Notes: generated by a model not told the origin, from the sequence alone. Shown: positions 14,111-34,480, numbered from the stretch's first letter. The stretch: DNA of 64,000 nucleotides from Thermoplasmatota archaeon (GCA_029939595.1 JAOZSQ010000001.1:261722-325721); one strand, 5' to 3'. Translations and numbers: made by a program.

Positions 14111-15258
14111 TTAAATTGCGTGATATATTAAAAAGACGAGATAAGGAATTTCCTTCATTTACTGTTGTTGAAGGTTTGAAGGAATATAAGGATCAAGGGG
14201 ATGTGTATATACATTTTGGAAAGGTAAGAAGACTAAAGTTAAATCCGATGGTTTATGAAGAGCAAGGTTCTCCTGTTGGTATATATTTTTATGTTATTAA
14301 AGAATATTGGAAATCTATAGAAGGTGGACAAATTGATTATGCCCAAGACAGACCATATGCCTTTGTTTTGAAACCAAAAAATAAAAGAGGTCTTGTTTCG
14401 GATACTGCAACATATTCAAATAAAAAATTGGTTGCTGATACTAAAAAACTAGAAAAAAAATATGGTAAAAGGTTATTAAAAATATATTTGGATAAGAAAT
14501 CATCTTTACAGACGATTGAAGATCTTTTTGAAAATTACAGATATTATTATGGTGAAGAATCTTTTAAATGTTCAAGGAAACCTATTGCAGAACTGTTTCG
14601 CATAACAAGTGGTATAGCCAGAGATTTATATCGCCCATCTGGTACGAAACATCTTTTTGGTTGGAATGAAGTATTAAATAGTTTAGGTTATAATGGGTTT
14701 GTTGATAAGTCTGGTTTGGGTTGTATTCATAAGTTTGAAATGCATCAGGGATATTTTATTAATGAGAATGTTTATGATACTATTAAAACTTTTAAGATTG
14801 TACCAGGAGAGTATATTAATGTTAAAAATTTGGAACAATTAGAGCCGTATCTTGCCTCTGGTAAGCTTGATTTAAATGACATACTTAATCAAATGGCATT
14901 TTTTGGAGAAGAAAATTATGTAAGAGTTGATACCAGAATGTACGGAGAGACCCGAATATCTTTTATGATTAATAAAAAAGTGTTTAAAAATAATAGAAAC
15001 AATAAAGTTGACTATTTTTTAAATAAATTTTGGCATTTGTCTAGCAATGAAATGGTTAGAGTTATTGATGATTTTAATGTTGGTAATGAATTTTGGAAAA
15101 AAGTAATTCCAAGAGAATGTAATTGGTTATTTAAAAAACGAGAAAATTTTAGTAAAGAAGAATTTGTTGAAAAATGTTTTGAGGATTTTTTTGGGGATGA
15201 GAAATATAGAAAAAAATATTTCAAACAAGTAAAGAAGGTTATTGAGGAAATACCATGA
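14107..15258 (+). CDS. family member 5 (divergent N-terminus, CTS degenerate)
   Basis: MIKLRDILKRRDKEFPSFTVVEGLKEYKDQGDVYIHF. Retains the family core (VGIYFYVIKE, GYNGFVDKSGLGCIHKFE) but lacks the FL-x-E CTS. Confidence 0.65.
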   Translation: MIKLRDILKRRDKEFPSFTVVEGLKEYKDQGDVYIHFGKVRRLKLNPMVYEEQGSPVGIYFYVIKEYWKSIEGGQIDYAQDRPYAFVLKPKNKRGLVSDTATYSNKKLVADTKKLEKKYGKRLLKIYLDKKSSLQTIEDLFENYRYYYGEESFKCSRKPIAELFRITSGIARDLYRPSGTKHLFGWNEVLNSLGYNGFVDKSGLGCIHKFEMHQGYFINENVYDTIKTFKIVPGEYINVKNLEQLEPYLASGKLDLNDILNQMAFFGEENYVRVDTRMYGETRISFMINKKVFKNNRNNKVDYFLNKFWHLSSNEMVRVIDDFNVGNEFWKKVIPRECNWLFKKRENFSKEEFVEKCFEDFFGDEKYRKKYFKQVKKVIEEIP

Positions 15259-16337
15259 TTAAATTCAAAGATTATTTAGAGGAACTTAATGAGGTATTTA
15301 TAGTAGGCAAGAAACGCCCCAATGATGGGGATAAAGTTATTGCTTATAATAAGTGGATTTGGGTGTTTGATGAGGATACTTGGGAAGAGGTTGCCAATGA
15401 TATTGAAGGTAAGTTAAAACTTAAAATAGATTCAACTGATTATTGGGATTTTACTCAGCATTTTGAGGAGTCAATTACAAATTCGGTAACTGGTGAAATT
15501 GAAGATGGTTGGTTAAGAGTAAATACTATGAATTGGCGACATAGCACCGCTTCAGCGACTTTATATAAAGTGTTAAAAGCATTAAGGTTAAGAGGGGCTT
15601 CTGTAGTTAGTTATGATGGTATGGGAGATATTGAAATCATAAAGGATCAGGATAGAGACGAATATTTAACACCAATGAAGAAGAAAATATTTTATCATGG
15701 AACATCTATGGATGCTTTTCCAAGAATGTTTAAAATGGGATTGATGGCTGGAAAAAGTAAAACTAATTATAAAGATATCACTCACGAGGATAAAGTATTT
15801 ATTACTCTTAATATGGAGAAAGCCAATTATCATGCTTTTACAGCAGCAGAACAAAAAAATAGTTTACCTATTATAATTTCTTTGAAAGTACCGGATGTTA
15901 ACCAATTGGTATTGGATTATGATGTAGCTATTGATATGTATGGAATGGATCATGAGGAAACCATTAATTTGGGATATAGTGATATACATAATTATGCTAC
16001 AAGAGGTAATATGTATGGTGCATTTGCAAGAAATAAAGAAGTTCAAGAATTATTAAAACAAACACCAGAAGATTTGAATACTAAATTGGGTGTGTTTGGT
16101 TATATTGGTCGGATTCCTGCTAGTTTTTTTGATGGTGTTTTTGTGGATGAGAATTGGTTATGCCAATATGTTAGGAGCAGAGAATATGGAGATTGGGATT
16201 GGGGTGAGAATCAGCAACATATGGAAAAGGATTTTACCCGATGGGATGAATTTACAGTCAAAAATTTTATTGATTCTTATGATGAATGTGAAGAAGAAAT
16301 GAATGCCGAGATGGAAGAGGAAGATGAAGATTATTAA
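15255..16337 (+). CDS. CTS-tagged cargo protein with HGT motif (possible ADP-ribosyltransferase-like fold)
   Basis: MIKFKDYLEELNE, and KKIFYHGTSMDAFPRMFKMGL, which resembles the NAD-binding H-G-T/S motif of Tpt1/H-Y-E ART folds. Acidic C-terminus. Confidence 0.6.
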   Translation: MIKFKDYLEELNEVFIVGKKRPNDGDKVIAYNKWIWVFDEDTWEEVANDIEGKLKLKIDSTDYWDFTQHFEESITNSVTGEIEDGWLRVNTMNWRHSTASATLYKVLKALRLRGASVVSYDGMGDIEIIKDQDRDEYLTPMKKKIFYHGTSMDAFPRMFKMGLMAGKSKTNYKDITHEDKVFITLNMEKANYHAFTAAEQKNSLPIIISLKVPDVNQLVLDYDVAIDMYGMDHEETINLGYSDIHNYATRGNMYGAFARNKEVQELLKQTPEDLNTKLGVFGYIGRIPASFFDGVFVDENWLCQYVRSREYGDWDWGENQQHMEKDFTRWDEFTVKNFIDSYDECEEEMNAEMEEEDEDY

Positions 16338-16352
16338 TAAATATAGGTAAAT

Positions 16353-16946
16353 ATGAACTTTAAAAAATTCTTGATAGAAAAAAAACGAAATATTAATATG
16401 GTTGTTGTGGATATCCAGCCGGAGTATAGTAGTTCTATTCATTTTTTACCAGAATTCATTGATTTTTTAAATGAAAATGATTTTGCCAAAGTGCTTTACT
16501 TGTATAATGGCGAAGATTTGGGTATGTCCAGTGAATCCGATTTGATAAGTTGGTTACTTGATAATGGGTTGGATGAAGATAAAATAGATGATTTTGATTT
16601 TTTTGAAAAAAATTATGCTTTCTTTAGAGATCTGATGGACCAAGGAATGGGTGAAGATGATATTGTGGAAATTGGTCAATTTGTTATGAAAAAACGAAAG
16701 CATGATTGGAGAGATTTGAATGGAGAGGAATGGGAAGAATTAGATTCTATTGTGTCGGATATATCGGATGATTCTAATCGTGGTGAGAACATGATGTTTT
16801 ATTTACCAGAAGTAGTTGATGAAATCAAACCTTTGCGATTGCCCTTATTAGCCGGTGGCGGAAGGAATGAGTGTTTAAGAGAGGTTGAATTAGTTTTTCA
16901 AATGTTAAATAAGAGGTATAGACTTCATAGGAAGTTTGTTTATTAG
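16353..16946 (+). CDS. CTS-tagged acidic cargo protein
   Basis: MNFKKFLIEKKRN. Asp/Glu-rich. The only TATAAATA-like sequence upstream is imperfect. Confidence 0.6.
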   Translation: MNFKKFLIEKKRNINMVVVDIQPEYSSSIHFLPEFIDFLNENDFAKVLYLYNGEDLGMSSESDLISWLLDNGLDEDKIDDFDFFEKNYAFFRDLMDQGMGEDDIVEIGQFVMKKRKHDWRDLNGEEWEELDSIVSDISDDSNRGENMMFYLPEVVDEIKPLRLPLLAGGGRNECLREVELVFQMLNKRYRLHRKFVY

Positions 16947-16947
16947 T

Positions 16948-17442
16948 ATGAGATACAAACAATTTTTAACAGAGTGGAAACAGGTTGGAACCATTTACCA
17001 TTTTACAACTTTTGATAGTACCATACAAATATTGAAAATGGGGTATTTGAGAAATGCTCCAATGAGAAATTATGTTTCTTTTACACGTAATTGTAATATG
17101 AAATATGGTGCTGGAACTGATCAAGTTTGGGGTTCTGCTCGGTTAGTTTTTGATGGGAATAAATTATCTGAAAAATATAGTATTGAACCATTTTGTGATG
17201 TTCATAATGAGATTAATAGGCGAGATGATGAGTGCGAAGAACGGATTTTGATGCGACCTCTCATGGCGGTATCCAAGCGGGATAGAAAGCAACCGGATGA
17301 AATAAAAATAAAGGGAAGTTTGAAACATGTGAATATATTTAAAGGGGCAACTTATATGGGTGCTCATGGAAAGCTAGTAGATGCTTTGGAAAAACATAAA
17401 ATCCCATACAGCATAGTAGATAAATTTAGGCCATACAAATGA
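16948..17442 (+). CDS. CTS-tagged cargo protein (YHFT...SFTRN family)
   Basis: Met at 16948 (MRYKQFLTEWKQVGTIYHFTT). Paralog of the 17439 gene (LVFDGNKLS.KY..EPFCD, ECEERI). Confidence 0.65.
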   Translation: MRYKQFLTEWKQVGTIYHFTTFDSTIQILKMGYLRNAPMRNYVSFTRNCNMKYGAGTDQVWGSARLVFDGNKLSEKYSIEPFCDVHNEINRRDDECEERILMRPLMAVSKRDRKQPDEIKIKGSLKHVNIFKGATYMGAHGKLVDALEKHKIPYSIVDKFRPYK

Positions 17443-17927
17443 GATTCAAGCAATTTTTACAAGAAGGCAAACAAGTTGGTATTTTATATCATTTCACCAG
17501 TTGTAGAAATGGTAGAGGGATACTAAAAAAAGGTTATTTGGAAAGTGGAACCGAAGGTGACTATTTTTCCTTTACTCGGAACTTTGATTTGAGGTTTGTG
17601 AGTAACGAACCTTGGGGTGGAGCTAGGTTGGTGTTTGATGGAAATAAACTTTCAAATAAATATAAAGTGGAACCGTTTTGTGATTTAAAAGGTGGTGTTA
17701 ACCGACAGGCTAATGAGTGTGAAGAACGAATAATGATGCAACCCTGGAAAGCGATTACAAAGGAGCATAAAAGATTACCTAAAACGATACCTATAAAGGC
17801 ATATTTACTTCATGTTGATATCTTAGATGATATCACTTATGCAGCTTCTATAATGAGCTTTCAAGAGATATTGGAAGATAAAGGAATTGATTATAATATA
17901 GTTAGAGAATATAAGCCGTACCGATGA
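17439..17927 (+). CDS. CTS-tagged cargo protein, paralog of 16948 gene
   Basis: MRFKQFLQEGKQVGILYHFTS...SFTRN...ARLVFDGNKLSNKYKVEPFCD. Confidence 0.65.
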   Translation: MRFKQFLQEGKQVGILYHFTSCRNGRGILKKGYLESGTEGDYFSFTRNFDLRFVSNEPWGGARLVFDGNKLSNKYKVEPFCDLKGGVNRQANECEERIMMQPWKAITKEHKRLPKTIPIKAYLLHVDILDDITYAASIMSFQEILEDKGIDYNIVREYKPYR

Positions 17928-17990
17928 AAATTTACTTATCAGTATTATTATAGAAGGATAATTGAACCATGAATGAACTAAAAAGGATTT

Positions 17991-18455
17991 ATGAAACAAG
18001 TAGAAATAGAGGTGTACAGAACGCTGGAGGATGAGGTTCATGTTTGGCTCCCTTTGACGTGTTTAGATAAGACTTTGAAAGAAATAAAAGTTACTACTAA
18101 ATGCAAGCCAGGATGTTTTATGTGTTGTTATGGCTTTGAATTGGTGCAAGTAGAGCCTCACGAATACATGAATTTGTTGATGCATAGATGCGAAAGGATG
18201 TTCTATGAAAAGACTGCAAAGGAGTTCCGATTCAATATTTGGGGTGGTTGTCAGTTTTTAGATCAGGAATATAAATGTAAAATATATCATGGTCCGAGAC
18301 CTCAAAAATGTAAAGATTATTTTTGTTTTGCAGTTGATGATGATGGGTTTCCCTATGTACAGGATGATTATGTATTTAAAGATTGTATAAAGGAGGGAAA
18401 TCGTTTAAGAGTTGAATTTAAGAAAGGGAAAGAGGATGATCCAAGTAAATTATGA
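17991..18455 (+). CDS. YkgJ/UPF0153-like CxxCxxCC putative metal-chelating protein
   Basis: CKPGCFMCC motif plus downstream Cys pairs. No CTS. Confidence 0.45.
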   Translation: MKQVEIEVYRTLEDEVHVWLPLTCLDKTLKEIKVTTKCKPGCFMCCYGFELVQVEPHEYMNLLMHRCERMFYEKTAKEFRFNIWGGCQFLDQEYKCKIYHGPRPQKCKDYFCFAVDDDGFPYVQDDYVFKDCIKEGNRLRVEFKKGKEDDPSKL

Positions 18456-18876
18456 AATAGATTTGGCTCGTACAGCCGATGGAAGAATGTTATTATGGAT
18501 TCCTAGCGAGTCGTTAAAACATGAACCAAGGGAAATCCATTTTTCTATTAAATGTAAAAAAGGATGTAATTATTGTTGCAGTAAATATAAAGCTGTTCCA
18601 ATTACTGAAGAAGAGTATGATGATTTGATGTTAAAGGGGGCACAAGGATTATATTATAATGATGTTGATAATTGCCTTTCTTTAAAAACGGAAGGTGGCT
18701 GTGAATATCTAAATGATAAAGGTTTATGTGATATATACGATTCTTGCAGACCAGGAGAATGCAAACGCTATGTTTGTTATACAGAAGGCAGGATAAAGTT
18801 GCCAGATGTTCAGAAGTTTTATCAATATAAGGAAATGTTTAAAGATATTAAACCTCAAATGATTAAATATATGTAG
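18412..18876 (+). CDS. YkgJ/UPF0153-like CxxCxxCC protein, tandem paralog
   Basis: CKKGCNYCC. The Cys spacing and WIPSESLK / VWLPLTCL N-termini parallel the 17991 gene. Confidence 0.45.
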   Translation: MNLRKGKRMIQVNYEIDLARTADGRMLLWIPSESLKHEPREIHFSIKCKKGCNYCCSKYKAVPITEEEYDDLMLKGAQGLYYNDVDNCLSLKTEGGCEYLNDKGLCDIYDSCRPGECKRYVCYTEGRIKLPDVQKFYQYKEMFKDIKPQMIKYM

Positions 18877-18884
18877 GAGAAAAT

Positions 18885-19157
18885 ATGAAGATAAAAGAGA
18901 TGTTTGAAAATATGTTAATTGAAGTAAGTATACCAGAGCGTCTTTTAAGGCAATTTAAGAAAAGAGCCGAAGAGGAAAAGGCTAAAGGAAATACTATTGA
19001 AGTTAATAAAAACGCACCAAAAATTGTTATAAAAAACGCTAAAGGTGAAGTTCGTTTTACAAAACAAGGAAAGGAAGCGCAATCGTGGATAAGTGAAGCA
19101 CCAGATGAAGGTATGAGTTTGGAAGATTTCTTATTAGCTAAATCTCAAGATTGGTAG
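18885..19157 (+). CDS. small Lys-rich hypothetical protein
   Basis: ORF with a GGAGAAAATATG ribosome-binding site. Its MKIKEMFENMLIE start is only weakly CTS-like. Confidence 0.5.
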   Translation: MKIKEMFENMLIEVSIPERLLRQFKKRAEEEKAKGNTIEVNKNAPKIVIKNAKGEVRFTKQGKEAQSWISEAPDEGMSLEDFLLAKSQDW

Positions 19158-19165
19158 GAGTAAAA

Positions 19166-19600
19166 ATGGAACCAAAAAAGTTTTTTGAAAAATTGTTAGA
19201 ACATCATGTTGAAATCTCTGATAAAGATCAACAAGTCCAGAATTTTTTTGATGAATTTGCTAAAATTAAGGGTGGTCTTATAGAAGATGAACTTAGTGAA
19301 ACTATATCAAAGGATACTATTAAAGAAATTAAAAAATTTATTGAAGATAAGATCAAAATTAAAGGTGTTATTAAAAAAGAAGATATCCAGAGGTTCATTA
19401 ATGCTCATTCTGATAGGAAAGGAAAGGGTAGTGATGCCATATTAATTGATAAGATACGTGCGGATCACAACGGGAATATCATATTTAAGGGTTTTGGTAT
19501 GGTTGGAGATCATTATGAAATGGTGTTGGTAAGAGAAGATGTGAAGCACCTTTGGAAGTTTTTATTATCATTAAAAAAGGAGATAAAAATAGCGGCATGA
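19166..19600 (+). CDS. hypothetical protein (degenerate CTS-like N-terminus)
   Basis: The Met at 19166 has a TAGGAG site (MEPKKFFEKLLEH). Confidence 0.5.
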   Translation: MEPKKFFEKLLEHHVEISDKDQQVQNFFDEFAKIKGGLIEDELSETISKDTIKEIKKFIEDKIKIKGVIKKEDIQRFINAHSDRKGKGSDAILIDKIRADHNGNIIFKGFGMVGDHYEMVLVREDVKHLWKFLLSLKKEIKIAA

Positions 19601-20292
19601 AATTCAGTCAATTTTTAGAACATAAAAGGGTACTTACAACCTCTTTAGAACAGTTGTCAAAGTATATGGGTATGAATACGCTCATGGAAAGTGAGCAGGA
19701 TTTTAGGAAGGAATTTTTTCAATTATTAAATGAACGGGCAACCGATTTTACTTATTCTAAAGGAATGTTAGATAAACTTAGAGAAGCTGATTTGGAAGTT
19801 GGTTTGCAAATCACCAATTTAGCAAGTGGGAATTGGCCTTCGGATGATAGTCGGGTGTTTTATAGGTATGATGGAACCAATTATGAAGAATTGGAAAATA
19901 AAGAATTGGAGATTCGGGAGAACAAGACGGATAAAGCTTGGACTGCTGTTATTATGACAGCATTTTCCAGTATTGATGGAAGTTATATTGGACCGGTTAG
20001 GGATACTTATAATAAGATTAAAAAGTGGGGTGTCTCCAAGTTCCAGGCTGGTAAATTGGGTGGTACGGTAGCTAATATCGCTTTTAAAGAGTCTGTTGCG
20101 GAATCCGAAGATGGAGAAGGTTGGTGTGGATGGTCTCACAGGGCGAGAGTTTGTTTCAAAATAGGTGATAAGATTTTTGAAGAAGGTTTTGGTGATGACA
20201 AAACTTTATTTTCTCAACATGGAACTAAAACAATAAAAACTTTGGAAGATGCCAAATTGTCAGCATCCAAATTTGCTGAATATGTGAGTTGA
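19597..20292 (+). CDS. CTS-tagged cargo protein
   Basis: Internal Met with ATGA overlap (MKFSQFLEHK). No domain recognised. Confidence 0.55.
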   Translation: MKFSQFLEHKRVLTTSLEQLSKYMGMNTLMESEQDFRKEFFQLLNERATDFTYSKGMLDKLREADLEVGLQITNLASGNWPSDDSRVFYRYDGTNYEELENKELEIRENKTDKAWTAVIMTAFSSIDGSYIGPVRDTYNKIKKWGVSKFQAGKLGGTVANIAFKESVAESEDGEGWCGWSHRARVCFKIGDKIFEEGFGDDKTLFSQHGTKTIKTLEDAKLSASKFAEYVS

Positions 20293-20296
20293 GAAA

Positions 20297-20325
20297 TTGA
20301 CATAATTGAAATTTTGCAGTAATAT
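20297..20325 (+). promoter_or_regulatory. sigma70-like promoter (TTGACA-17-TAATAT)
   Basis: Good -35/-10 boxes with a 17-nt spacer in the 88-nt gap upstream of the 20380 gene. Confidence 0.4.
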
Positions 20326-20379
20326 AAAAGATTATGTGGGTAATTTTACCCAAAAATAATTGAAAATAAAGGAGAAAAA

Positions 20380-21195
20380 ATGGCTGCAAAATTAGCAAAA
20401 CAGAAACATGTGAAATATCAAATTCACGAGGGAAACTTTCCGTTGGCACCGGCGATGATGAAAAGGATTTTTGGAGGAACGGATGAAATAACTGCTTTTC
20501 ATCTTTGCAATCCTTCTAATCTTCGCAGATTGGTTGATTTGGATGAATCGGGTAATTCTGGTTCGGTATCGTGTTTTATAAACATGAAAAAAGCCAATTT
20601 CACTAAAGGAGTTTATGCGGGAGCCGGAGTTATTGCAAAGATAAAAGGTATTCCATTGGTTATGAGTGATGGTGATATTATATCAAGACCGGATACAAGT
20701 AAAATTAGATGGGTTCCTGTTGAGAAATTGTCTATTGATAAACCAGAATGGAAATTCGTAGCTAATGGAATGCGACAGGCAAAGGAGAATGTTCAAGAAA
20801 AATTACCGATTCCTATAAAGCACCCAACAACGGTGACAAATTATTGGGATTATTTTATTGGACCGCTTGATCATGGAAAACTGAAATATCAAATAATCAG
20901 AGGTTATTATGGTCAGGTTGAACGATTTGTTGTTAATAATAGAGATAAAATCAGGCAGTTATTGTTTGATTATGATCCTGATTGTACTCATGTTGAGAAT
21001 TGGGATGAGTTGGTAATAAACAATATAACGATAGAAGAAATATTTTTATTTGAGGATATTCTTCAAAGGGAAATAATAGAGCTTATAAAGGCGGAACCTA
21101 CAAGTTCTCGTTATAAGTTTCTAATAGGAAACATAGATAACGTATCAGATTGGATGAAAGAAACCAAAAATGAGGAGTCAACCACGCAAATTTAA
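20380..21195 (+). CDS. hypothetical protein (no CTS, own promoter and ribosome-binding site)
   Basis: AAGGAGAAAAAATG. No motif recognised. Confidence 0.55.
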   Translation: MAAKLAKQKHVKYQIHEGNFPLAPAMMKRIFGGTDEITAFHLCNPSNLRRLVDLDESGNSGSVSCFINMKKANFTKGVYAGAGVIAKIKGIPLVMSDGDIISRPDTSKIRWVPVEKLSIDKPEWKFVANGMRQAKENVQEKLPIPIKHPTTVTNYWDYFIGPLDHGKLKYQIIRGYYGQVERFVVNNRDKIRQLLFDYDPDCTHVENWDELVINNITIEEIFLFEDILQREIIELIKAEPTSSRYKFLIGNIDNVSDWMKETKNEESTTQI

Positions 21196-22192
21196 ATCTC
21201 ACCAACCAACACCAGGAGTCCCTGGTGTTCCCTCCTTTAAACAATTCCTTTTAGAACGATTAGAAACCTCTAAAAAAACCCTTTTAGAAGGCGTATCAGA
21301 TATATTATACCATTATACCCATTTGGGAAATTTGATGAACATATTGGAAGGGGATAGGTTTGTTTTATCTACCGATGTTGGAACGGGTGCGGATAGAGAT
21401 TTTAATAAGTCCAAAGGAAAATTTTATTATTTTTCAACTACTCGTCATAAGTTGGGAGGATATCATAAAGATCCTGGTGGCGAAAGTAGAGTAATGTTAG
21501 TATTAGATGGAAGATCATTAGGAAACAGGTTAAGTGGTGCGCCGGTTGATTATTGGGGTCCAGAATTTGCTAAATTGGATCGTACAAAACAAGAAGCCGA
21601 GGATAGACTTTGGAGTGAAAAACCTTACATTGAAAAGGCATCCAAGTATATTAAGGAAATCCATATAATGCAGTTTGAGGAATTTACCAAACAATATGAT
21701 TTGTTTTTGCCGAGGGATCAATGGAAAACAAAACAAAATGTATGGTCTCCTTTTATGGGCGATTTACAAAGATATAGAAAAGTATTGTTTATTACAAAGA
21801 AAAAGAATATTCCATGTTATATCTATAGGGATCATAAGAATTGGTTGTTGCAAAATAAAAGAAAATCAGTTCATTTGGATATTGCTTCATTAAAAAGTGA
21901 TCCGGTTTCGGGGTATTCTCGTGTTGGGCGTAATCATTTTGAAGAATATATTGAATTGTATCATAAGAAAAAAGAAAGAGATTTATCAAAGAAAGCTGAG
22001 AAATTATTATACGATTTAAAATACCATGATTATGGTAATGAACGAGCAAAAATGCTTAACAATGATATTCATAATAATAAAAGTAAACCAGAATCAGGTT
22101 TAAAAAGTTTATTGGATATAATGAAAAAGGAAAGGTTACGAACTCCCCAGGACTATATTGATATGTTAAAGGAGAGGTGGAAGATAACATGA
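21170..22192 (+). CDS. cargo-family protein with internal CTS-like motif and YHYT motif
   Basis: N-terminus MRSQPRKFKSHQPTPGVPGVPSFKQFLLERLE: the CTS-like decapeptide lies 20 aa inside the protein. Also DILYHYTHLGNLMNILEGDRF. Confidence 0.55.
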   Translation: MRSQPRKFKSHQPTPGVPGVPSFKQFLLERLETSKKTLLEGVSDILYHYTHLGNLMNILEGDRFVLSTDVGTGADRDFNKSKGKFYYFSTTRHKLGGYHKDPGGESRVMLVLDGRSLGNRLSGAPVDYWGPEFAKLDRTKQEAEDRLWSEKPYIEKASKYIKEIHIMQFEEFTKQYDLFLPRDQWKTKQNVWSPFMGDLQRYRKVLFITKKKNIPCYIYRDHKNWLLQNKRKSVHLDIASLKSDPVSGYSRVGRNHFEEYIELYHKKKERDLSKKAEKLLYDLKYHDYGNERAKMLNNDIHNNKSKPESGLKSLLDIMKKERLRTPQDYIDMLKERWKIT

Positions 22193-22293
22193 GATTTAAG
22201 AATTATTTAATAGAAAAAGCCAACCATAGATTGGGTTTGGCCAAAGAGTTAAATCTAAAAACAGTTCCAGTGAGGTTTTATTATTCATCATGA
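22189..22293 (+). CDS. 34-aa CTS-only mini-ORF (cargo cassette remnant?)
   Basis: Below the track cutoff: MRFKNYLIEKANHRLGLAKELNLKTVPVRFYYSS. ATGA-coupled to both neighbouring genes. Confidence 0.35.
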   Translation: MRFKNYLIEKANHRLGLAKELNLKTVPVRFYYSS

Positions 22294-22658
22294 AACCATT
22301 TAAACAGTTTTTGAGAGAAGGTAGAGATCCTAGACAGTTTTCTAAATATTTAGAAAACAAATATCCTGGTGTGGTTGTTGAGTTGTATTATGGCAACCAC
22401 GAAGATATTTTACAGTTGTCAAGTATTGTCGTTCCCAAAGAAGAACGCAAGACAGGAATCGGTTCTCAAGTAATGGAAGAATTGGTTGGTTATGCGGATA
22501 AGATGAATATGACACTTACTTTGACACCTTCCAGGGATTTTGGAGCTACCAGTGTTGAGCGTTTGAAAAAGTTTTATAGTCGGTTCGGGTTTGTGAGAAA
22601 CAAAGGCCGCAAGAAAGATTATCGTATATTTGATGTGATGTATAGGAGACCACAATGA
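22290..22658 (+). CDS. CTS-tagged GNAT-like acetyltransferase
   Basis: MKPFKQFLREG, and IGSQVMEEL...KFYSRFGF resembling the GNAT acetyl-CoA-binding motif. Confidence 0.45.
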   Translation: MKPFKQFLREGRDPRQFSKYLENKYPGVVVELYYGNHEDILQLSSIVVPKEERKTGIGSQVMEELVGYADKMNMTLTLTPSRDFGATSVERLKKFYSRFGFVRNKGRKKDYRIFDVMYRRPQ

Positions 22659-23113
22659 TTAGTTTTATTAGATTCTTAAAGGAGAAATATTTAGATACAT
22701 TGGTATATAGAAAATTTGGTGGTGAGAGTGCGGTTGATGTATTTTTAAATCCATCAAAACACGAGATAGGCAAAATTGCAAGGGAAAACCGATATGGAGA
22801 ACTTCGTTGGATAGCTGATTTAGAAAAAGAAAATATTTATTTTTGGGATGCTAATCATTTACATGATGATGTTTATAATTTATTGGATGGTTCGGGTGTA
22901 CATTTATCAGATATAGAAAAGGCTTATAATGGAAAAGTGTTGACAGGTATATTATCCATGCCAGGATTTAAAGTGAAACAAAGTAGTCTTACTCATTTTA
23001 CATTAGGTCAGCTTAATAAATTCAAAAATAGTGATGTGAATTTGAGTTGGTTGGAAAGATATATGAATTATGATGATTTGATGCAAGGATATGAACGTGG
23101 AGGGAGGATATGA
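22655..23113 (+). CDS. CTS-tagged cargo protein ('WDAN.LHD' family)
   Basis: MISFIRFLKEK. Shares NIYFWDANHLHDDV with the 27095 gene. Confidence 0.6.
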   Translation: MISFIRFLKEKYLDTLVYRKFGGESAVDVFLNPSKHEIGKIARENRYGELRWIADLEKENIYFWDANHLHDDVYNLLDGSGVHLSDIEKAYNGKVLTGILSMPGFKVKQSSLTHFTLGQLNKFKNSDVNLSWLERYMNYDDLMQGYERGGRI

Positions 23114-23922
23114 TTAGTTTTATTCAATTTTTATTAGAAAAAGCAAAAACGCCACCAAAATATGTAACCATGTCGGCTAAAACTTGGAAAGACCAAGATC
23201 CAATCGGTTGGTGGATGTCAATTAAATATGACGGTGTTCGGGCATATTGGGATGGTGAATATTTTTATAGTAGGGCTGGAAATATTTGGGCTGCTCCTGG
23301 TTGGTTAAAGGATAGTATGCCAAAAAATCATCTTGATGGGGAATTCTTTTGTGGCAGAGATAAATTTCATGAATGTAGTGGTATTGCAAGAAAAAAACAG
23401 CCACATGAAGGATGGAGAAAAATTAAATATTATGTGTTTGATTTGCCTGATTCAAACGAACCGTTTGAGACTAGAATGAAGAAATTAGAACAGTTGACAA
23501 AAGGTAACAAAAATATAGTGTTTGTTAAACAAACCAAGATTAAGGATTCCGATCATTTACAAACAGCATTGAAAAAAGAATTGGCTTTAAAAGGTGAAGG
23601 AATGATGTTGCGTAAACCTGGATCAAAATATGAAAGGAAGCGATCAAGTTCATTGTTGAAGATTAAAGAATTTTTTGATGCGGAAGCAGAGATTGTGGGT
23701 TATACCGAAGGAAAGGATAAGTATGAAGGAATGGTGGGGGCTTTTAAAGTAAAAGATGTAAAAAATGGAGCATTGTTTAATTTATCGGGGTTTTCTGATG
23801 CAATGAGAAAGAAACCCCCGAAGATTGGTACAATAGTAACTTACAAATACCAAGGATATCATGCTAGTGGTAAACCAAGGATTCCAGTATTTTTAAGAAT
23901 AAGGAGTGATGCGGGATTATGA
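23110..23922 (+). CDS. CTS-tagged ATP-dependent DNA/RNA ligase (minimal nucleotidyltransferase)
   Basis: MISFIQFLLEK. Motif I KYDGVR, motif III LDGEF, motif IV EGMMLRK, motif V LLKIK. 270 aa. Confidence 0.75.
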   Translation: MISFIQFLLEKAKTPPKYVTMSAKTWKDQDPIGWWMSIKYDGVRAYWDGEYFYSRAGNIWAAPGWLKDSMPKNHLDGEFFCGRDKFHECSGIARKKQPHEGWRKIKYYVFDLPDSNEPFETRMKKLEQLTKGNKNIVFVKQTKIKDSDHLQTALKKELALKGEGMMLRKPGSKYERKRSSSLLKIKEFFDAEAEIVGYTEGKDKYEGMVGAFKVKDVKNGALFNLSGFSDAMRKKPPKIGTIVTYKYQGYHASGKPRIPVFLRIRSDAGL

Positions 23923-26992: not shown

Positions 26993-27092
26993 AAATACAC
27001 AAGATGATATCAATTTGATAACTAGTCTATCTTTTGTGGCTATATTAGCGACAGTTATGGGCACTGGATTATTTATTTTTTTTGGGATTTAG
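26982..27092 (+). CDS. 36-aa single-TM mini-protein
   Basis: MMDKNTQDDINLITSLSFVAILATVMGTGLFIFFGI. Below the track cutoff and ATGA-coupled. Confidence 0.3.
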   Translation: MMDKNTQDDINLITSLSFVAILATVMGTGLFIFFGI

Positions 27093-27094
27093 AT

Positions 27095-27661
27095 ATGATT
27101 AGTTTCAAACAACATTTGGAAGAGTCAAAAACCAAGATTTTATATCATGGTACAACTTCTAAAATATTAAAATCAATAAAAAAGAATGGGTTCAACTCAC
27201 CTGTTTATTTGTGTCCTGATAAGAAAGATTTCAAACAATATTTTACAGAAAAATATGAGGATAGTTTCAATACTGCGGATGGGTTTGTTGAAATTTTTAT
27301 GAATCCGTCTAAGAAAGAATTGATGGAAATTGTAAAATTGAATGGTTTTGATTCTATTCGTTATGCAATCAATTTGGATAAGAAAAAGATATTTGTTTGG
27401 GATGCTAATATTTTACATGATAAAGTAGTTCCAAAGTTAAGATCGGTTTTGGGTACAAAATTGGTGCATGTTGCTTCTGGTATAATCTTTTATGAAAAAA
27501 ACAGTTTTTTAATGAGCAATTTCAGATTTCAAACTAAAATGGATGCCGAAGAATTTTTTCTTGGTTATTATGATAAGAAGATTGGTTGGTTAGATTCCAC
27601 TTTTGACTTGCAAGGAGTTAAGGCAGAATTTAAAACATGGAGAAAGAGGTTGAAGTTATGA
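27095..27661 (+). CDS. CTS-tagged cargo protein with HGT motif ('WDAN.LHD' family)
   Basis: MISFKQHLEESKTKILYHGTTSKILKSIKKNGF; KIFVWDANILHDKV. Confidence 0.6.
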   Translation: MISFKQHLEESKTKILYHGTTSKILKSIKKNGFNSPVYLCPDKKDFKQYFTEKYEDSFNTADGFVEIFMNPSKKELMEIVKLNGFDSIRYAINLDKKKIFVWDANILHDKVVPKLRSVLGTKLVHVASGIIFYEKNSFLMSNFRFQTKMDAEEFFLGYYDKKIGWLDSTFDLQGVKAEFKTWRKRLKL

Positions 27662-29073
27662 TTAGTTTCAAACAATATTTAATTGAGGAAAAAATGAAAG
27701 ATTGGAATCAGTATGTCAATTCTATACCTTCATTAAAGAAGGCTATAGAAGTTATGAAAATACTTGAGCCTTATGGAAGGATTTATATTGTGGGTGGTGC
27801 GGTTCGTGATTTAATCACTGGTGAAAAGGTGCCGGATGATATTGACTTGGCTTGTAATATTCCAATGGAAAAGATTGAATCTCTCTTCAAAACCCACGAT
27901 ATCGGAAAAAATAAGGATTTTGGTATTATAGTGATTGTTTATAAAGGCGAAGACATGGAAATAGCCCAATTCCGATCTGATGGAACCTACTCGGATGGAA
28001 GAAGACCGGATTCCATTAAAATTGAAATGTCATTTGAACAGGATGCCGAGAGAAGGGATTTCACAATAAACTCAATGGCAGTGGATGCCGATGGTAATAT
28101 CATTGATTATTTTGATGGAAAGAAGGATGTCAAAAACAAAGTAATCCGAACCGTTGGAGACCCAAATAAACGCTTCTCAGAGGATTACTTGAGAATGCTT
28201 AGAGCAGTACGTTTTTCGTCCAGAATGGGATTTGAGATGGCTCCAGAGACCTTAGAAGCGGTTAAAATTAATGCCGGTTACATAAAGGGTATTGCTGTTG
28301 AGAGAGTTGTTAAAGAACTTATGAAAATGGCCGACCAATCTGGTGACAAATTTGCAGATGCAATCCTTAAACTAAAGGAATCGGGATTGTTAAAATATAT
28401 TCTTCCTGAAGTGTTGAAGATGGACGAGTTTGAGCATCATGCAGAATACCATCCAGAAGGGAATGTATGGGAACATACGCTGGCTGCGTTACGAGTCAAT
28501 AAAATAACAGATCCCATACACAATTTGGCTATTCTCCTCCATGATATAGGAAAGATAGTAACCTACAAAAAGGAAGGTGATAAGATAACATATTTGCAAC
28601 ATGCGAAGAAAGGTATTGATCTTATTGATATGATTGCAGACCGATTGAAGTTGGATACCAAAACAAGGCAAACTTTGAAATTTGCTTGTGAGCATCATAT
28701 GAAGATGCATGATTTTGTTAAAATGTCTCCATCTAAGATCATGAAATTGGTTAATGATGATAATTGGGGTGTACTTCATAATGTTTCTCATTGTGATGAT
28801 AAATGTCGGCTTCAGTTGTACGATAAAAAGCATTGGGATGCCATAACTGATAAAATTGAGAAATTATCTGATAAATATAAAAAAGAGTCTGGAAAAGATC
28901 CGTTGAAAAAGATTGTTAATGGGCAGTTAGTTATGAAAACTAGAGGGATCAAGCCAGGAAAAGAGGTTGGTGTGGTTATTAATGCGACAATGGATTGGAT
29001 AATTAATAATGGTGTGAAATTAGATGATACTAAGAAGATCACCGATTTTGTTAAGAATTATAAAATAGCATGA
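27658..29073 (+). CDS. CTS-tagged CCA-adding / poly(A)-polymerase-family nucleotidyltransferase with HD domain
   Basis: Internal Met (MISFKQYLIEE). GGAVRD...DIDL head motifs, RRDFTINSMA, and a C-terminal HD region (LLHDIGK). Confidence 0.8.
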   Translation: MISFKQYLIEEKMKDWNQYVNSIPSLKKAIEVMKILEPYGRIYIVGGAVRDLITGEKVPDDIDLACNIPMEKIESLFKTHDIGKNKDFGIIVIVYKGEDMEIAQFRSDGTYSDGRRPDSIKIEMSFEQDAERRDFTINSMAVDADGNIIDYFDGKKDVKNKVIRTVGDPNKRFSEDYLRMLRAVRFSSRMGFEMAPETLEAVKINAGYIKGIAVERVVKELMKMADQSGDKFADAILKLKESGLLKYILPEVLKMDEFEHHAEYHPEGNVWEHTLAALRVNKITDPIHNLAILLHDIGKIVTYKKEGDKITYLQHAKKGIDLIDMIADRLKLDTKTRQTLKFACEHHMKMHDFVKMSPSKIMKLVNDDNWGVLHNVSHCDDKCRLQLYDKKHWDAITDKIEKLSDKYKKESGKDPLKKIVNGQLVMKTRGIKPGKEVGVVINATMDWIINNGVKLDDTKKITDFVKNYKIA

Positions 29074-29690
29074 AGTTTATATTAGTATTGTTGTTTGTTG
29101 TTCCTTGTATTGTTTCAGGCGAATCAAAATATTTGTTTCCTTGGGACTTGTCACAGTGGACATGCTTGGGGTATATTAATCAGATAAAGAATACGAAAAC
29201 TTATAAAACTCTTCAAAAATTATTAAAAAAGAGATCCCATAAATTTTATAAGTCGGCATCTCTTTCTGATCTTAAACTAATTCCAACGAAATATACTGTT
29301 AAATATCCATACCATAAGATACGTATTGATGCATATTCATCTTTGGTTAGGATGATACAAGATTCGCATGATAAGGGTTCCCCATTATATGTCTCATCGG
29401 CTTATCGGTCTCCTTATCTCCAGAATTTATTGTGGAAGAATAGATTGAATGCCGAATATGATGTATCAATGGATGCTTTATCAAACTATGTTAGAACCGC
29501 ATATAAAACGGCTCCACCATGTTATTCGGAACATGCAACAGGTTTGGCTGTTGATTTTTTGAAAACAAATAATTGGTTGCGTGATAATGCAAAGAAATAT
29601 GGTTGGAAACAGTCGTTTGATGGTTCAGGAGATGTAACTAACATTATGAAAGAAAGTTGGCATTATGCTTATATAAAGGAGAAATCATGA
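29070..29690 (+). CDS. secreted M15 (VanY-like) D,D- / L-Ala-D-Glu peptidase, endolysin candidate
   Basis: Signal peptide MKFILVLLFVVPCIVSG. SAYRSPYLQ and SEHATGLAVDF are the zinc-ligand motifs of peptidase M15. Confidence 0.7.
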   Translation: MKFILVLLFVVPCIVSGESKYLFPWDLSQWTCLGYINQIKNTKTYKTLQKLLKKRSHKFYKSASLSDLKLIPTKYTVKYPYHKIRIDAYSSLVRMIQDSHDKGSPLYVSSAYRSPYLQNLLWKNRLNAEYDVSMDALSNYVRTAYKTAPPCYSEHATGLAVDFLKTNNWLRDNAKKYGWKQSFDGSGDVTNIMKESWHYAYIKEKS

Positions 29691-30388
29691 AAAAGTATAT
29701 ACTTTTTCTAGGAATTTTATTATTTACAATGCCTGTCATTGCCGATGAATTGGTGCTTGTTTCAAATCCTTGGCCACCATATATATTTGGAAAGATGGGT
29801 TCATCTGATGTTACTGGAATAACAATAGGTCAATATAATAAAATATTTAAGAAGATGAAGATCAAGGTAAAATATATGATGATACCTTGGCGTAGAGCTT
29901 TACAAGAGATAAAAGAAGGATATGCTGATGGAGCAATAATTTTACAACAGAATTCTGAAAGATCAAAATATATGGTGTTTACTAATATTGTAATGGTTGA
30001 AAACACTTTTATGTTTTATTCCAAAAGGAAATATCCTGGGGGTATGGAATGGAAAACACCGTTGGATTTGGTTGGGTATCGTATAGGTTTGGTACGGGGG
30101 TATTCATACGGACCTATTCAGGCAATGATAGATACGGGATTACCTTTACAAATTGAAATGGTAAGTAAAGAAACACAGTTATTGCCCATGTTAGTTAGGG
30201 GAAATATTGATATATTTCCTTATTCAGAGATGATAGCAAAATATGCTTTTAAATTAAAAGGTATTGATTATGTGGTACATGCTTCAAAGGAAGTGTATAA
30301 AGCATATTATCGTATGGGAATTTCAAAGAAGTCAAAATGGAAAAAAATGATCCCTCAATTTAACAAGATTTTAAAAGAGGTTTTATGA
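29687..30388 (+). CDS. secreted substrate-binding-protein family 3 (SBP_bac_3)-like protein
   Basis: The Met at 29687 has an AAGGAG site. Signal peptide MKKYILFLGILLFTMPVIA. Paralog of the 39784 gene. Confidence 0.5.
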   Translation: MKKYILFLGILLFTMPVIADELVLVSNPWPPYIFGKMGSSDVTGITIGQYNKIFKKMKIKVKYMMIPWRRALQEIKEGYADGAIILQQNSERSKYMVFTNIVMVENTFMFYSKRKYPGGMEWKTPLDLVGYRIGLVRGYSYGPIQAMIDTGLPLQIEMVSKETQLLPMLVRGNIDIFPYSEMIAKYAFKLKGIDYVVHASKEVYKAYYRMGISKKSKWKKMIPQFNKILKEVL

Positions 30389-30852
30389 AAAAGTTTTTGA
30401 TTTTTTTACTTATTGCTTTTTTCACAACAACCGTTTTTGCAGAGAGATATTATATCAGATCAAGAACGGCTCATCTTTTATTGCGACCAAAAATTGGTTC
30501 TAAAAAAGTATTGAAATTGAAAAAGGGTGATTCGGTTGAGTTAATAAAGAGAAAGAAAGTATGGGTTTTTTTGAGACATGGAAAAAAACAAGGCTGGTTA
30601 AATAGGATGTTAATCTCAAAACGGAAACCAAAATTAAGAAAGTCTATTTTTTCTAATAAGGTTGATATTTCCAGTACAGCAAGAAGAAGAGCTTCTTCAT
30701 TCACGAGTGCGGCTGCTTCCAGAGGACTTGTAGCCGATCAAGAAACTATGAAAAATCTACCAACAGCGAATTATGCTGCTTTGCACAAAATTGAATCTTT
30801 GGTGATTGATGAAGAGGAAGCTGTTGAATTTTTAATGTATGAAGGAGATTGA
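30385..30852 (+). CDS. secreted SH3b-domain protein
   Basis: Signal peptide, then YYIRSRTAHLLLRPKIGSKKVLKLKKGDSVELIKRKKVWVFLRHGKKQGWL, a typical bacterial SH3 pattern. Basic C-terminus. Confidence 0.5.
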   Translation: MKKFLIFLLIAFFTTTVFAERYYIRSRTAHLLLRPKIGSKKVLKLKKGDSVELIKRKKVWVFLRHGKKQGWLNRMLISKRKPKLRKSIFSNKVDISSTARRRASSFTSAAASRGLVADQETMKNLPTANYAALHKIESLVIDEEEAVEFLMYEGD

Positions 30853-32038: not shown

Positions 32039-32445
32039 ATGTAACAGTTGAGTGGAAAAAAGAAGATATTTTATTAATAAGAGTTATTGGAACACCAAGT
32101 AATGAATTGATATTTGATGCTTTGGAACAAATTAAAACAGTTGTTGGATCAGCAACAGGTTTTTATATTATTACCGATATCAGCAAATGTGATCCTACAT
32201 CAAGTACAATGTTTATGAATTTCTTAGGAAAGGTGATGATTGTTTTTAAGAATAAAAAGGTAAAGGGAGTAATACGTGTGGTTGCAGATGATATAAAAGG
32301 TACATTAACTAAGCAAATGTTTAGATCGGTATCTGGTAAAGTTCCAGATTATGCTCAAGTTGATGAGTGTTTTAATGTAACTCAGGCACTTACTATGATT
32401 GAAAATATGAAACTAAAAGATGTTCAAAGAGGGAGTCGGCATTGA
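32035..32445 (+). CDS. hypothetical protein (no CTS)
   Basis: ATGA-coupled ORF. Weak resemblance to STAS-like folds; not asserted. Confidence 0.5.
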   Translation: MNVTVEWKKEDILLIRVIGTPSNELIFDALEQIKTVVGSATGFYIITDISKCDPTSSTMFMNFLGKVMIVFKNKKVKGVIRVVADDIKGTLTKQMFRSVSGKVPDYAQVDECFNVTQALTMIENMKLKDVQRGSRH

Positions 32446-33401
32446 TAACTTTTAAGCAATTTCTAATAGAAGGTATGGGGCAGGTTAAAAGAAATTTTTT
32501 AACTCCTGGAAAAATAGATAATGATGATCTTCGTAAGATTAAATCATTAAATTCTTTAGATCTTAATGGTGATTATTTGGAATGGTTAGCAAAATTTATG
32601 GTTGATAACGAATATGCCAAAAGTAATACTTTAAATAAAAAGGTTTATGCTAAATTGAAAAATATACTTCCACGTTTTGACAGTTTGAAAAATAAAAATG
32701 TGGTTAAAGAAATTCCAAATGGAATGAATTTGGAAGAGTTGGAGTTTGAAATTAATTCATTAGAATCTAAATATTACGCTAATAAGAAAATGGATGTCGG
32801 GGGTTTGAAAGAAGGAGTTGATTATGAAAATTTTTATTTTGGTAATGGTTTTGAGATTTTACTTGTAAAGACACATAAAGGTATAATGAAAATTGGTTCT
32901 GGTACAAAGTGGTGTATAACAAGTGAATGGGGGCAAGATTGGAACGAGTTAGTTGGTGACAGATGTTTTTATGTATGTAGAAATAACAGAGTTAGAAGAA
33001 ACGATCCAATGTATAAAGTTGCTATTCAAGTACAAAAACTTGATAATGAAATTGCTCTTATTTGGGATGCTAAAGATAATGCATATTTGCCTCATAGCAA
33101 AGAATATAAGGAATTGTTTAGAATGTTGGAAATTAAAAATAAATTTGTTTATGTAAAAATTAGAAAGTTTTATCATTTAAGTAGACTTAAAAAGATATAT
33201 GATCAATTGGTTATGTTTAAAGATGAGAAAAATTTAGAAATTGAAATTGAAAGTGATGATATTATTAATCCAAACGGCAAAAAAATTGTGGGTGGTAGAC
33301 ATTATATGATGTGGGCACACGAAGAACAAGGGGTATGGGTGAAATATAACAATTTACCCAATCCATATTTATGGAATTCAAAGGGGGTTGATATAGAATG
33401 A
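32442..33401 (+). CDS. CTS-tagged 'GSGTKWCIT' family cargo protein (third paralog)
   Basis: MITFKQFLIEGMGQVKRNFLTPGKIDNDDL...GSGTKWCITSEWGQDW. Confidence 0.7.
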   Translation: MITFKQFLIEGMGQVKRNFLTPGKIDNDDLRKIKSLNSLDLNGDYLEWLAKFMVDNEYAKSNTLNKKVYAKLKNILPRFDSLKNKNVVKEIPNGMNLEELEFEINSLESKYYANKKMDVGGLKEGVDYENFYFGNGFEILLVKTHKGIMKIGSGTKWCITSEWGQDWNELVGDRCFYVCRNNRVRRNDPMYKVAIQVQKLDNEIALIWDAKDNAYLPHSKEYKELFRMLEIKNKFVYVKIRKFYHLSRLKKIYDQLVMFKDEKNLEIEIESDDIINPNGKKIVGGRHYMMWAHEEQGVWVKYNNLPNPYLWNSKGVDIE

Positions 33402-34480
33402 TTGGGTTTAAGCAATTTCTAATAGAACAATATAGAGGTTCCTTTTTTCATGGATGTGATGAAAGAGCCTTTAAATTTAATTTAGAGAATGGAATTCAGT
33501 ATGATCCTGGTGAAGCATGGTCCCCAGGACAAGTAATAAATTCGGGGGTTAAAGCAGTTTATTTTACTGGTTCTATAGAAACTGCTGCGAGATATGCTGT
33601 TGGTGTGGCTTATAATAGCGAACCGTTTATTATTGAATTCTATCTTAGTGGAAAATCCAAATTTAAAAAAATGAAATTTGATCCGATGGATCGTCCAGAT
33701 TATGATAATGAATTTCGTTTTGGTGATGATGATCTTTTCCAATTGAGTTCTTCTGTTGAAAAATTGTATAGGGATTTAACTGGTGATTCAAGTGCTTTTA
33801 AATTTGTAAAAGATATTAAATTAAGCGGGTTTGAAGAATTGGATGAGATCAGGGGTTTCAAATTACACCAAAATATGATTAATGTGCTTACTCGTAAATT
33901 GGGAAGATCCAGGAAACAGGAGATAAAAAGAGAAATAATGAAACGATTTGAACCAGGACAATTTTCTGAATATTTGGAAATAACCCGTTCTGGTACAATC
34001 GCATTAAATGATGATTATTATCAACATATCAAACAAGTTCAAATGACCACTCAAAAGATCCCACCTTCGGCTTTCAAGTTTGTTTGGGTCCGAACAGCCG
34101 ATCATCCACGATTAAGAGATTCTGATATTATTGAAACGGACAATTTTGGTGAAGAAGAGCTTCCACATGAGTCACAAGATAGAAGTGAACATTTGAGAGG
34201 TTTGTCAATAGATGCCGAATGGGGAATAGTGGATTTTGATGAATGGGAAGGTTATTCTGATCGGTATTCAGAGATTGGAAAGGTTTTAAAAGAGTTGAAA
34301 CCAATGTATAATGACGAATTGGATTCGGATGAACAATCGGATGAATTTAAACGCCTTGCTAATGAATTGGCTGGTTTGGCTGATGAGATAATAAATGATG
34401 AATGGGCTAATCCTCAAGAACAAAATATTACTACTTGGGCGAAAGTTAAAGTAAAAACAGCAGCGAGGTTGGCAAGATGA
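33398..34480 (+). CDS. CTS-tagged cargo protein (FHG motif)
   Basis: MIGFKQFLIEQYRGSFFHGCDERAF. Confidence 0.6.
   Translation: MIGFKQFLIEQYRGSFFHGCDERAFKFNLENGIQYDPGEAWSPGQVINSGVKAVYFTGSIETAARYAVGVAYNSEPFIIEFYLSGKSKFKKMKFDPMDRPDYDNEFRFGDDDLFQLSSSVEKLYRDLTGDSSAFKFVKDIKLSGFEELDEIRGFKLHQNMINVLTRKLGRSRKQEIKREIMKRFEPGQFSEYLEITRSGTIALNDDYYQHIKQVQMTTQKIPPSAFKFVWVRTADHPRLRDSDIIETDNFGEEELPHESQDRSEHLRGLSIDAEWGIVDFDEWEGYSDRYSEIGKVLKELKPMYNDELDSDEQSDEFKRLANELAGLADEIINDEWANPQEQNITTWAKVKVKTAARLAR

Follow-up and report, generated by a model that had tools for sequence, protein, structure and literature searches.

This report concerns a 64,000-nucleotide stretch of DNA recorded under a Thermoplasmatota archaeon (GCA_029939595.1 JAOZSQ010000001.1:261722-325721; the whole stretch is called the window hereafter) and six proteins encoded on its + strand, here named A to F, which were examined as putative ADP-ribosyltransferases (ARTs). 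The window is AT-rich (GC content about 0.33), carries nearly every gene on the + strand, and is part of a very large T4-like myovirus, the 426,929-bp contig of which was located by exact-sequence matches. A gene for a T4-type large terminase lies at 8206-9936, and one for a tail sheath, with about 40% identity to the sheaths of T4-like Vibrio phages, lies at 41590-43848. Between the terminase and tail genes, in the late region of the phage, there is a long run of open reading frames (ORFs) whose products start with M-x-x-F-K-Q-F-L-x-E, referred to below as the tag. Using the relaxed pattern F[KRIS].[FYH][LIF].E, a match within the first 11 residues was found for 22 ORFs, and just three matches were internal. 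At the DNA level, a blastn search with positions 15255-22192 against 50,697 phage records returned no match.

Protein A (15255..16337, 360 amino acids) consists of a tag or leader (residues 1-13, nucleotides 15255-15293, MIKFKDYLEELNE), an N-terminal domain of no known function (residues 14-140), an ART-fold domain (approximately residues 141-300, nucleotides 15675-16154) and an acidic C-terminal tail. The paralogous proteins B (16948..17442, 164 amino acids, tag MRYKQFLTE) and C (17439..17927, 162 amino acids, tag MRFKQFLQE at nucleotides 17439-17465) are each composed of the tag and a single ART-fold domain. In protein D (21170..22192, 340 amino acids) a 22-residue extension precedes an internal tag-like FKQFLLE (nucleotides 21236-21256), which is followed by an ART-like domain at approximately residues 31-232 (nucleotides 21260-21865), homologous to B and C, and by a C-terminal region of about 110 amino acids. 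Protein E (27095..27661, 188 amino acids) is a fusion that begins with the tag MISFKQHLEE (residues 1-10), and protein F (33398..34480, 360 amino acids) is acidic and carries the tag at residues 1-10.

The initial annotation of this region had proposed that these proteins share an aromatic-His motif that opens an ART-type fold, and all the peptides it quoted were found in the respective ORFs. The motif is present as IFYHGTSMDAFPRMFKMGL at residues 145-163 of A, LYHYTHLGNLMNILEGDRF at residues 46-64 of D, ILYHGTTSKILKSIKKNGF at residues 15-33 of E and FFHGC at residues 15-19 of F, and as IYHFTT...ILKMGYL in B and LYHFTS...ILKKGYL in C, both of which also contain SFTRN. The pattern [YFLI][YF]H[GFY][TC] matches exactly A to F among the 68 + strand ORFs of at least 80 amino acids. 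In 2000 residue shuffles the mean number of matches was 0.07 and the maximum 2, compared with six observed, a figure that is indicative only since the pattern was defined post hoc from its matches and B and C are paralogues. The motif had been placed right after the tag, and this is its position in B, C, E and F, whose motif His follows the tag Glu by 7-9 residues. It is not its position in A, where the motif (residues 146-150) follows about 135 residues past the tag behind a separate 127-residue N-terminal domain, or in D, where FKQFLLE, the tag-like string, occupies internal residues 23-29 and lies 17 residues ahead of the motif.

Proteins B and C share 47% identity, and B matches the hidden Markov model (HMM) of the B/C family with 180 bits. 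For C, 44 homologues were retrieved from metagenomic and phage data, none with a Pfam domain. In a 41-sequence alignment of this family E9, K11, Y17, H18, R47 (in S-x-T-R), G68, S72 (in LSNKY) and E95 are invariant, and T20, S44, T46, N73, K74, Y75, E93 and E96 are nearly so. Protein D belongs to a much larger set, with 1638 cluster representatives (clusters at 50% identity) at E<=1e-3; the residues S89, R92, Y128 and E142-x-E144-D-R146 are invariant in its family, and H48 is present in 71 of 73 sequences. The relationship of the two groups is visible by blastp (C matches D at E 0.001) and in cross-hits of the HMMs, and was confirmed by hhalign of the family profiles (99.35% probability, E 5.5e-21, 160 columns), in which H18 is aligned with H48, S44-x-T-R47 with S89-x-T-R92, G68 with G114, and E93-x-E95 with E142-x-E144. 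The E93-x-E95-E96 of C stands at the start of a predicted strand (residues 95-99), where ARTs carry [QE]-x-E, and B, C and D have, by position, a candidate for the catalytic acidic residue of strand 5. DarT1 has Q150-A-E152 at this position (PMC11543638). The nicotinamide-contacting Tyr may be represented in the B/C family by Y75 (39 of 41 sequences), which lies in the helix after predicted strand 3, and S44 lies on strand 2. The best sequence match of the B/C profile in the PDB was DarT1 (E 0.019, 37 residues, on LFHFTHSDNLTSILDNG). Among predicted viral structures in BFVD the nearest were uncharacterised D-type phage proteins, followed at greater distance by ORFs of giant viruses, baculoviruses and iridoviruses.

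The D-type domain is also found within some multidomain phage proteins of 1.3-3.4 thousand amino acids, which also hold ART-PolyVal, NUDIX, GNAT or NT5C domains. No Pfam model covers the D-type region itself; it is thus a recurrent unannotated module of polyvalent proteins. The D homologues P0109, P0137, P0151, P0203 and P0240 are 1376-3449 amino acids long, and the four of them that were scanned carry ART-PolyVal, NUDIX, GNAT or NT5C; a 649-amino-acid homologue (P0113) carries PcfJ. The ORF of D begins 26 nucleotides inside the preceding ORF (20380-21195), 22 residues (MRSQPRKFKSHQPTPGVPGVPS) precede its FKQFLLE, and there is no in-frame ATG, GTG or TTG between its ATG (21170) and the tag. 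Either the tag tolerates an N-terminal extension, or expression is unusual at the junction with the preceding ORF.

Protein A matches phrog_11974 (E 1.6e-77), and 61 homologues of about 350 amino acids were found. By tblastn it was found in 52 phage records, including KVP40-like Vibrio phages (KVP40.0290, 'hypothetical protein') and Salicola phage SCTP-2; one record of the family is already labelled 'poly(ADP-ribose) polymerase catalytic domain protein'. Invariant in the family are E13, H148-G-T150, G162, F182, H193, D214, D221-Y-D223, G279, Y283 and G285-R286-I287. The A-family profile matched Tpt1/KptA chains at E 0.001-0.007 and PARP3 at E 1.3, confined to the YHGT..IL..GL.P stretch, and sub-threshold matches to PTS_2-RNA (10 of 34 members, best E-value 7.8e-4), PARP (9 of 34) and Arr-ms (2 of 34) were likewise restricted to the motif region. 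A long helical insert separates predicted strands 4 and 5 and precedes Y283-x-G-R. The invariant D221-Y-D223 after strand 4 is, on the predicted structure, a candidate substitute for the strand-5 acidic residue. A PADLOC match of A to REase_II (E 0.0016) was set aside as weak and at odds with the fold result.

The six proteins, taken in the initial annotation as members of one family, fall into several groups. One group comprises the related proteins B, C and D, a second comprises A and perhaps F, and E is fragmentary; a single family for all six was rejected, hhalign of A against the B/C family giving 2.5%. For F, no homologue other than the protein itself was found in a search of 5.8 billion proteins, which depends on shared exact words. 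Its putative A-type core spans residues 14-108 (nucleotides 33437-33721) and contains FFHGC, AVYFTG, AARYA, PFIIEF and DYD. In an hhalign comparison with the A family (30% probability, E 5.5e-4) the alignment covered all the conserved A motifs including DYD, pairing FFHGC with FYHGT, AVYFTG with KVFITL, AARYA with ANYHA, PFIIEF with PIIISL, and PDYDNEF with LDYDVAI. A second motif at residues 219-234 (nucleotides 34052-34099, KIPPSAFKFVWV) is a co-linear match to GRIPASFFDGVFV of A, and F also shares the IPxSxF motif, the length of 360 amino acids and an acidic character (isoelectric point, pI, of 5.0, and 4.65 in A). Against Pfam ART-PolyVal, F scored E 0.095 (13.9 bits, compared with a gathering threshold of 31.2 bits), and BLAST comparisons with the ART-PolyVal regions of two polyvalent proteins were not significant. 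Judged by these sequence comparisons, F is a probable divergent A-type ART.

Protein E was rejected as a complete small ART, as about 33 ART-like residues are joined to an unrelated domain. The ART-like piece corresponds to β1-α1-β2 (residues 11-43, nucleotides 27125-27223), and gave E-values of 0.036 with Pfam PARP, 0.005 with PHROG Tpt1 and 0.0016 with NCBIfam Tpt1, and 17 bits with the A-family HMM; the NCBIfam Tpt1 matches reached 18 bits compared with cut-offs above 230. It is followed by a second, internal tag, FKQYFTE (residues 46-52, nucleotides 27230-27250; DFKQYFTE at 45-52). Residues 46-167 are paralogous to the whole of two tagged proteins encoded at 22655-23113 (blastp E 1.4e-12) and 34477-34899 (E 3.5e-8), and the alignment begins at the internal FKQYFTE, exactly at the N-terminal tag of the paralogues. 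The C-terminal domain gave probabilities below 6% against ART profiles, and tblastn with E found no match. The most plausible reading of the E sequence is that the following tagged gene became joined, in frame, to what was left of a decayed ART gene; cleavage at the tag, should it be a protease site, would free a peptide of some 40 residues from E.

For proteins A to D the proposed ART fold was borne out in its core, for F the support is weak, and for E as a complete enzyme the proposal failed. Two independent models, predicted for A and C, fall into the same superfamily, that of the split β-sheet fold of ARTs, with the motif on strand 1 and helix 1. The nearest structures (Tpt1, DarT, toxins, Arr) are all transferases, and the fold search list includes about fifty further ADP-ribosyltransferases. 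The sub-threshold sequence matches, obtained independently, all lie in the ART clan: DarT1 for B/C, Tpt1 and PARP3 for A, and PTS_2-RNA, PARP and Arr-ms for members of the A family. The motif His stands in predicted strands (residues 15-20 of C and 146-151 of A) and is conserved in homologues, in 41 of 41 sequences for H18 and 34 of 34 for H148, in addition to H48 of D. Other invariant polar residues occupy the expected places, namely R47 and E95 in B/C and D221, D223 and R286 in A. The downstream Glu/Asp, which the initial annotation had suggested looking for, is present by position in B, C and D (E95 and E144, each in E-x-E) and absent from A. Overall, A to D are predicted to be complete ART-fold proteins of the His-bearing H-Y-[EDQ] side, to which Tpt1, DarT, PARP and Arr belong, and to fall into two families that are unrelated at the sequence level.

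The leader of the array, M-x-x-F-K-Q-F-L-x-E, resembles the T4 capsid targeting sequence (CTS), which is the sole common feature of the otherwise diverse internal proteins of T4 (PMC3012670). A homologue of C on a 167-kb contig starts with MLRFKEYLEE/AKQVG and adjoins tagged paralogues and tail genes. Taking fold and tag together, we regard it as likely, with reasonable confidence, that A to D are tagged, head-loaded and injected ARTs, with F as a divergent relative of A and E as a remnant. The leader would guide the tagged proteins into the prohead core and would be cut off after the Glu by the prohead protease, and the mature enzymes would then enter the cell together with the phage DNA. There, NAD+ would be bound via the β1 His and the 'IL..G' element of α1, and ADP-ribose would be moved to host targets. 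Head-packaged ARTs are known to be enriched in myoviruses (PMC9503650), and polyvalent proteins have been predicted to be delivered by virions (PMC5512222).

Several observations count against this interpretation. None of the six proteins had a significant match in Pfam, NCBIfam or PADLOC, and no curated family threshold was reached. The catalytic residue assignments rest on strand positions in predicted structures. In protein A the place expected for the Tyr of H-Y-E is taken by an invariant Phe (F182, strand 2), and predicted strand 5 (280-284) does not begin with an acidic residue (G279/V280); D has Leu at the column equivalent to Y75, which holds Tyr in 52 of the 73 sequences of its family. 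With regard to packaging, no prohead protease was identified within the window. In B and C the last residue of the tag, Glu, does not vary even among homologues in which just 4-5 residues precede it; it therefore belongs to the domain and is no evidence of cleavage. Homologues in other phages adjoin replication and nucleotide-metabolism genes, and some lack the leader, so that packaging is not a family-wide property.

The two groups differ in what may be said of their targets. Mature B, C and D are basic (pI 8.9-9.5), their fold is nearest to the nucleic-acid-directed Tpt1 and DarT, and predicted strand 5 begins in each with an invariant E-x-E; on these grounds it is proposed that they possibly act on DNA or RNA. 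The chemistry and target of A and F are less predictable because these proteins are acidic, lack the strand-5 Glu and carry invariant D-Y-D and Y-x-G-R. A more far-reaching version, which we put forward tentatively and consider doubtful as a whole, is that the B/C/D superfamily (at least 1638 clusters) would be a phage-borne counterpart of DarT, injected to ADP-ribosylate host DNA or RNA at entry, and that A and F would be a second type of injected ART with a D-Y-D active site.

The remaining genes of the array encode a variety of products. Five tandem paralogues at 9921-15258, near-identical over the first ~35 residues (MISFRLFLEKRSHADQNPKISVVDALEKYKDDPD) and divergent thereafter, gave no Pfam, PHROG or PDB match; tagged homologues of this family adjoin the C homologue on the unrelated 167-kb contig (4945-5655 and 6949-7980). 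They were considered as a further ART family on account of a Y-x-H-F ... G-I-Y-x-Y pattern and rejected since the His is not conserved, being Arg in one paralogue and Ser in the homologues on the 167-kb contig, and no relevant PDB match was found. Between A and B, 16353-16946 encodes a tagged 197-amino-acid protein with a second, looser tag-like FIDFLNE at residue 35 and no Pfam or PHROG match, which is, by position alone, a candidate partner or immunity factor. Directly downstream of B and C are two overlapping, untagged adjacent paralogues (17991-18455 and 18412-18876), the first with a CxxCxxCC putative Zn/Fe-chelating domain (PF03692, E 2.9e-5). The product of 19597-20292, with the tag-like start MKFSQFLEH, is a homologue of the type I Thoeris inhibitor Tad6 (Pfam PF25188, E 6.6e-19) and, if this homology reflects function, would act against immunity based on NAD-derived signals, in the same array as the ART-fold proteins. 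Tagged products further include a GNAT acetyltransferase (22290-22658), an ATP-dependent DNA ligase with ligase and OB domains (23110-23922) and a PolyA_pol/CCA-adding-type nucleotidyltransferase with an HD domain (27658-29073); if the tag means packaging, a ligase and an enzyme for tRNA-end repair would be among the proteins injected by the phage. An untagged block at 29070-30852 has signal-peptide-like N-termini and encodes a VanY D-Ala-D-Ala carboxypeptidase, a family-3 solute-binding protein and an SH3-like protein; the N-terminus of the 39784-40533 product is similar to those of this block. Genes of this host-like envelope type are embedded in the cargo array, and the tagged part of it closes with 38191-38898, which encodes a patatin-like phospholipase (E 4.7e-6, 27.4 bits compared with a Pfam cut-off of 27.7). 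A PHROG scan of ten neighbouring ORFs gave no match.

Function from gene neighbourhood was rejected as a guide, since the contexts of homologues vary (tail, replication, nucleotide metabolism and one RNA-repair-like set) with no consistent partner. Within the window itself, the Tad6 homologue makes the countering of NAD-based immunity a local theme, the ART superfamily includes NADases (PMC9503650), and A lacks the canonical strand-5 Glu. The proteins might be NADases, or binders or degraders of NAD-derived immune signals, injected as anti-defence factors. We consider this rather unlikely, as no likeness to known sponges was seen, the nearest structures are all transferases, and B, C and D are basic and keep the E-x-E.

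The tagged ligase and CCA-adding enzyme also invite an RNA-repair explanation, in which some or all of the proteins would be Tpt1/KptA-like 2'-phosphotransferases or RNA-end ADP-ribosylators that restore tRNAs cut by anticodon nucleases of the host. One homologue does lie near a CCA-adding enzyme, a kinase-like gene and a NUDIX gene, but the other homologue neighbourhoods show no RNA-repair genes. Moreover, the matches to Tpt1 cover the NAD lobe only, PTS_2-RNA scores are far below threshold, the catalytic tetrad of Tpt1 is not preserved, an N-terminal RNA lobe is missing from B and C, and B, C and D carry an invariant E-x-E, a feature of transferases that lies outside that tetrad. This explanation was accordingly judged unlikely.

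A third alternative is that the proteins are catalytically dead ART-like scaffolds or decaying paralogues that serve as internal head proteins. For E and F the motif would then be the sole remnant. Yet across 34-73 divergent homologues of A to D the His, Arg, Glu and Asp residues are strictly invariant, which suggests an active or ligand-binding site and leaves the alternative with little probability. Chance recurrence of a short motif in unrelated folds, which could draw on the pattern having been defined after the matches were known and on the 2.5% hhalign result between A and the B/C family, is highly improbable, given that both independent models fall into the same fold superfamily and about 0.1 matches are expected by shuffling compared with six observed, and it is ruled out for A to D by the fold searches.

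Within seconds of the onset of infection, phage-delivered ARTs reprogram the host or disable it, T4 Alt being the textbook case, and surveys predict many more of them. If A to D are head-loaded and injected ARTs, as preferred here, the window holds a compact set of two uncurated ART families in several copies, apparently addressed to the capsid by the same leader. Should nucleic acids be the substrates of B, C and D, the phage would be one that injects an enzyme for DNA or RNA ADP-ribosylation, and a very large family of uncharacterised proteins would acquire a function; the DarT-like version, if true, would turn bacterial anti-phage chemistry into an offensive, pre-packaged weapon. If B, C and D are ordinary protein-modifying ARTs, they would add to the head-packaged effectors and indicate that a T4-type tag carries many enzyme classes.

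Tpt1 has two lobes and a catalytic Arg-His-Arg-Arg tetrad. In comparison with Tpt1/KptA (PF01885), B and C have a single domain without an N-terminal RNA-binding lobe, and the A family does not retain the tetrad (R95 in 20 of 34 and H96 in 18 of 34 sequences, R286 being the sole invariant Arg). Scores were far under the family threshold, with no Pfam match for A to D, and the invariant E-x-E and S-x-T-R of B, C and D are not among the residues that define Tpt1. From PARP and Arr, protein A differs in its sub-threshold scores, the Phe in place of the motif Tyr, the missing strand-5 Glu, the extra N-terminal domain and the helical insert between strands 4 and 5.

The catalytic residues of DarT are an Arg in the NAD loop (R51/R52) and a Glu (E160/E152) (PMC11543638). 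A candidate for the latter (E95) is present in B and C, whereas the R-x-D motif of the DarT NAD loop is not apparent, the invariant R47 lying after strand 2 and not before it. There was no match to Pfam DUF4433 (the ssDNA ADP-ribosyltransferases DarT1/DarT2), and hhalign with six annotated plasmid DarT sequences gave 84% with only the N-terminal motif aligned with confidence. No DarG, Macro or NADAR partner was found among the scanned neighbours in the window or in homologue neighbourhoods; the proteins here are phage-encoded and tagged, and do not form a toxin-antitoxin defence module.

ART-PolyVal (PF18760, H-Y-D) offers a parallel in setting, since it comprises ARTs of the His clade that are predicted to be virion-delivered and is found alongside the D-type domain in giant proteins. 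Its Asp-type active site (PMC5512222) may have a counterpart in the invariant D-Y-D of A and F. However, within polyvalent proteins the D-type domain is a region separate from ART-PolyVal, the score of F is sub-threshold, and the proteins described here are stand-alone and tagged, not fused into polyvalent proteins.

T4 Alt is likewise an ART-fold enzyme with a short N-terminal leader ending in Glu, carried in the head and delivered with the DNA, as is proposed for the present proteins (PMC9503650, PMC3012670, PMC5512222). The proteins fall outside the R-S-E clade of Alt, ModA and ModB, which combines an Arg on strand 1 with S-T-S on strand 2 and E-x-E on strand 5, for lack of the strand-1 Arg, in agreement with the initial annotation, which had assigned the proteins to a different fold clade. 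Because A to D fit neither Tpt1, DarT, PARP, ART-PolyVal nor Alt/Mod, they are members of uncurated ART families, without a Pfam or NCBIfam model. Head-packaged phage ARTs are already an established concept, to which these proteins would add members of two uncurated families that carry the tag.

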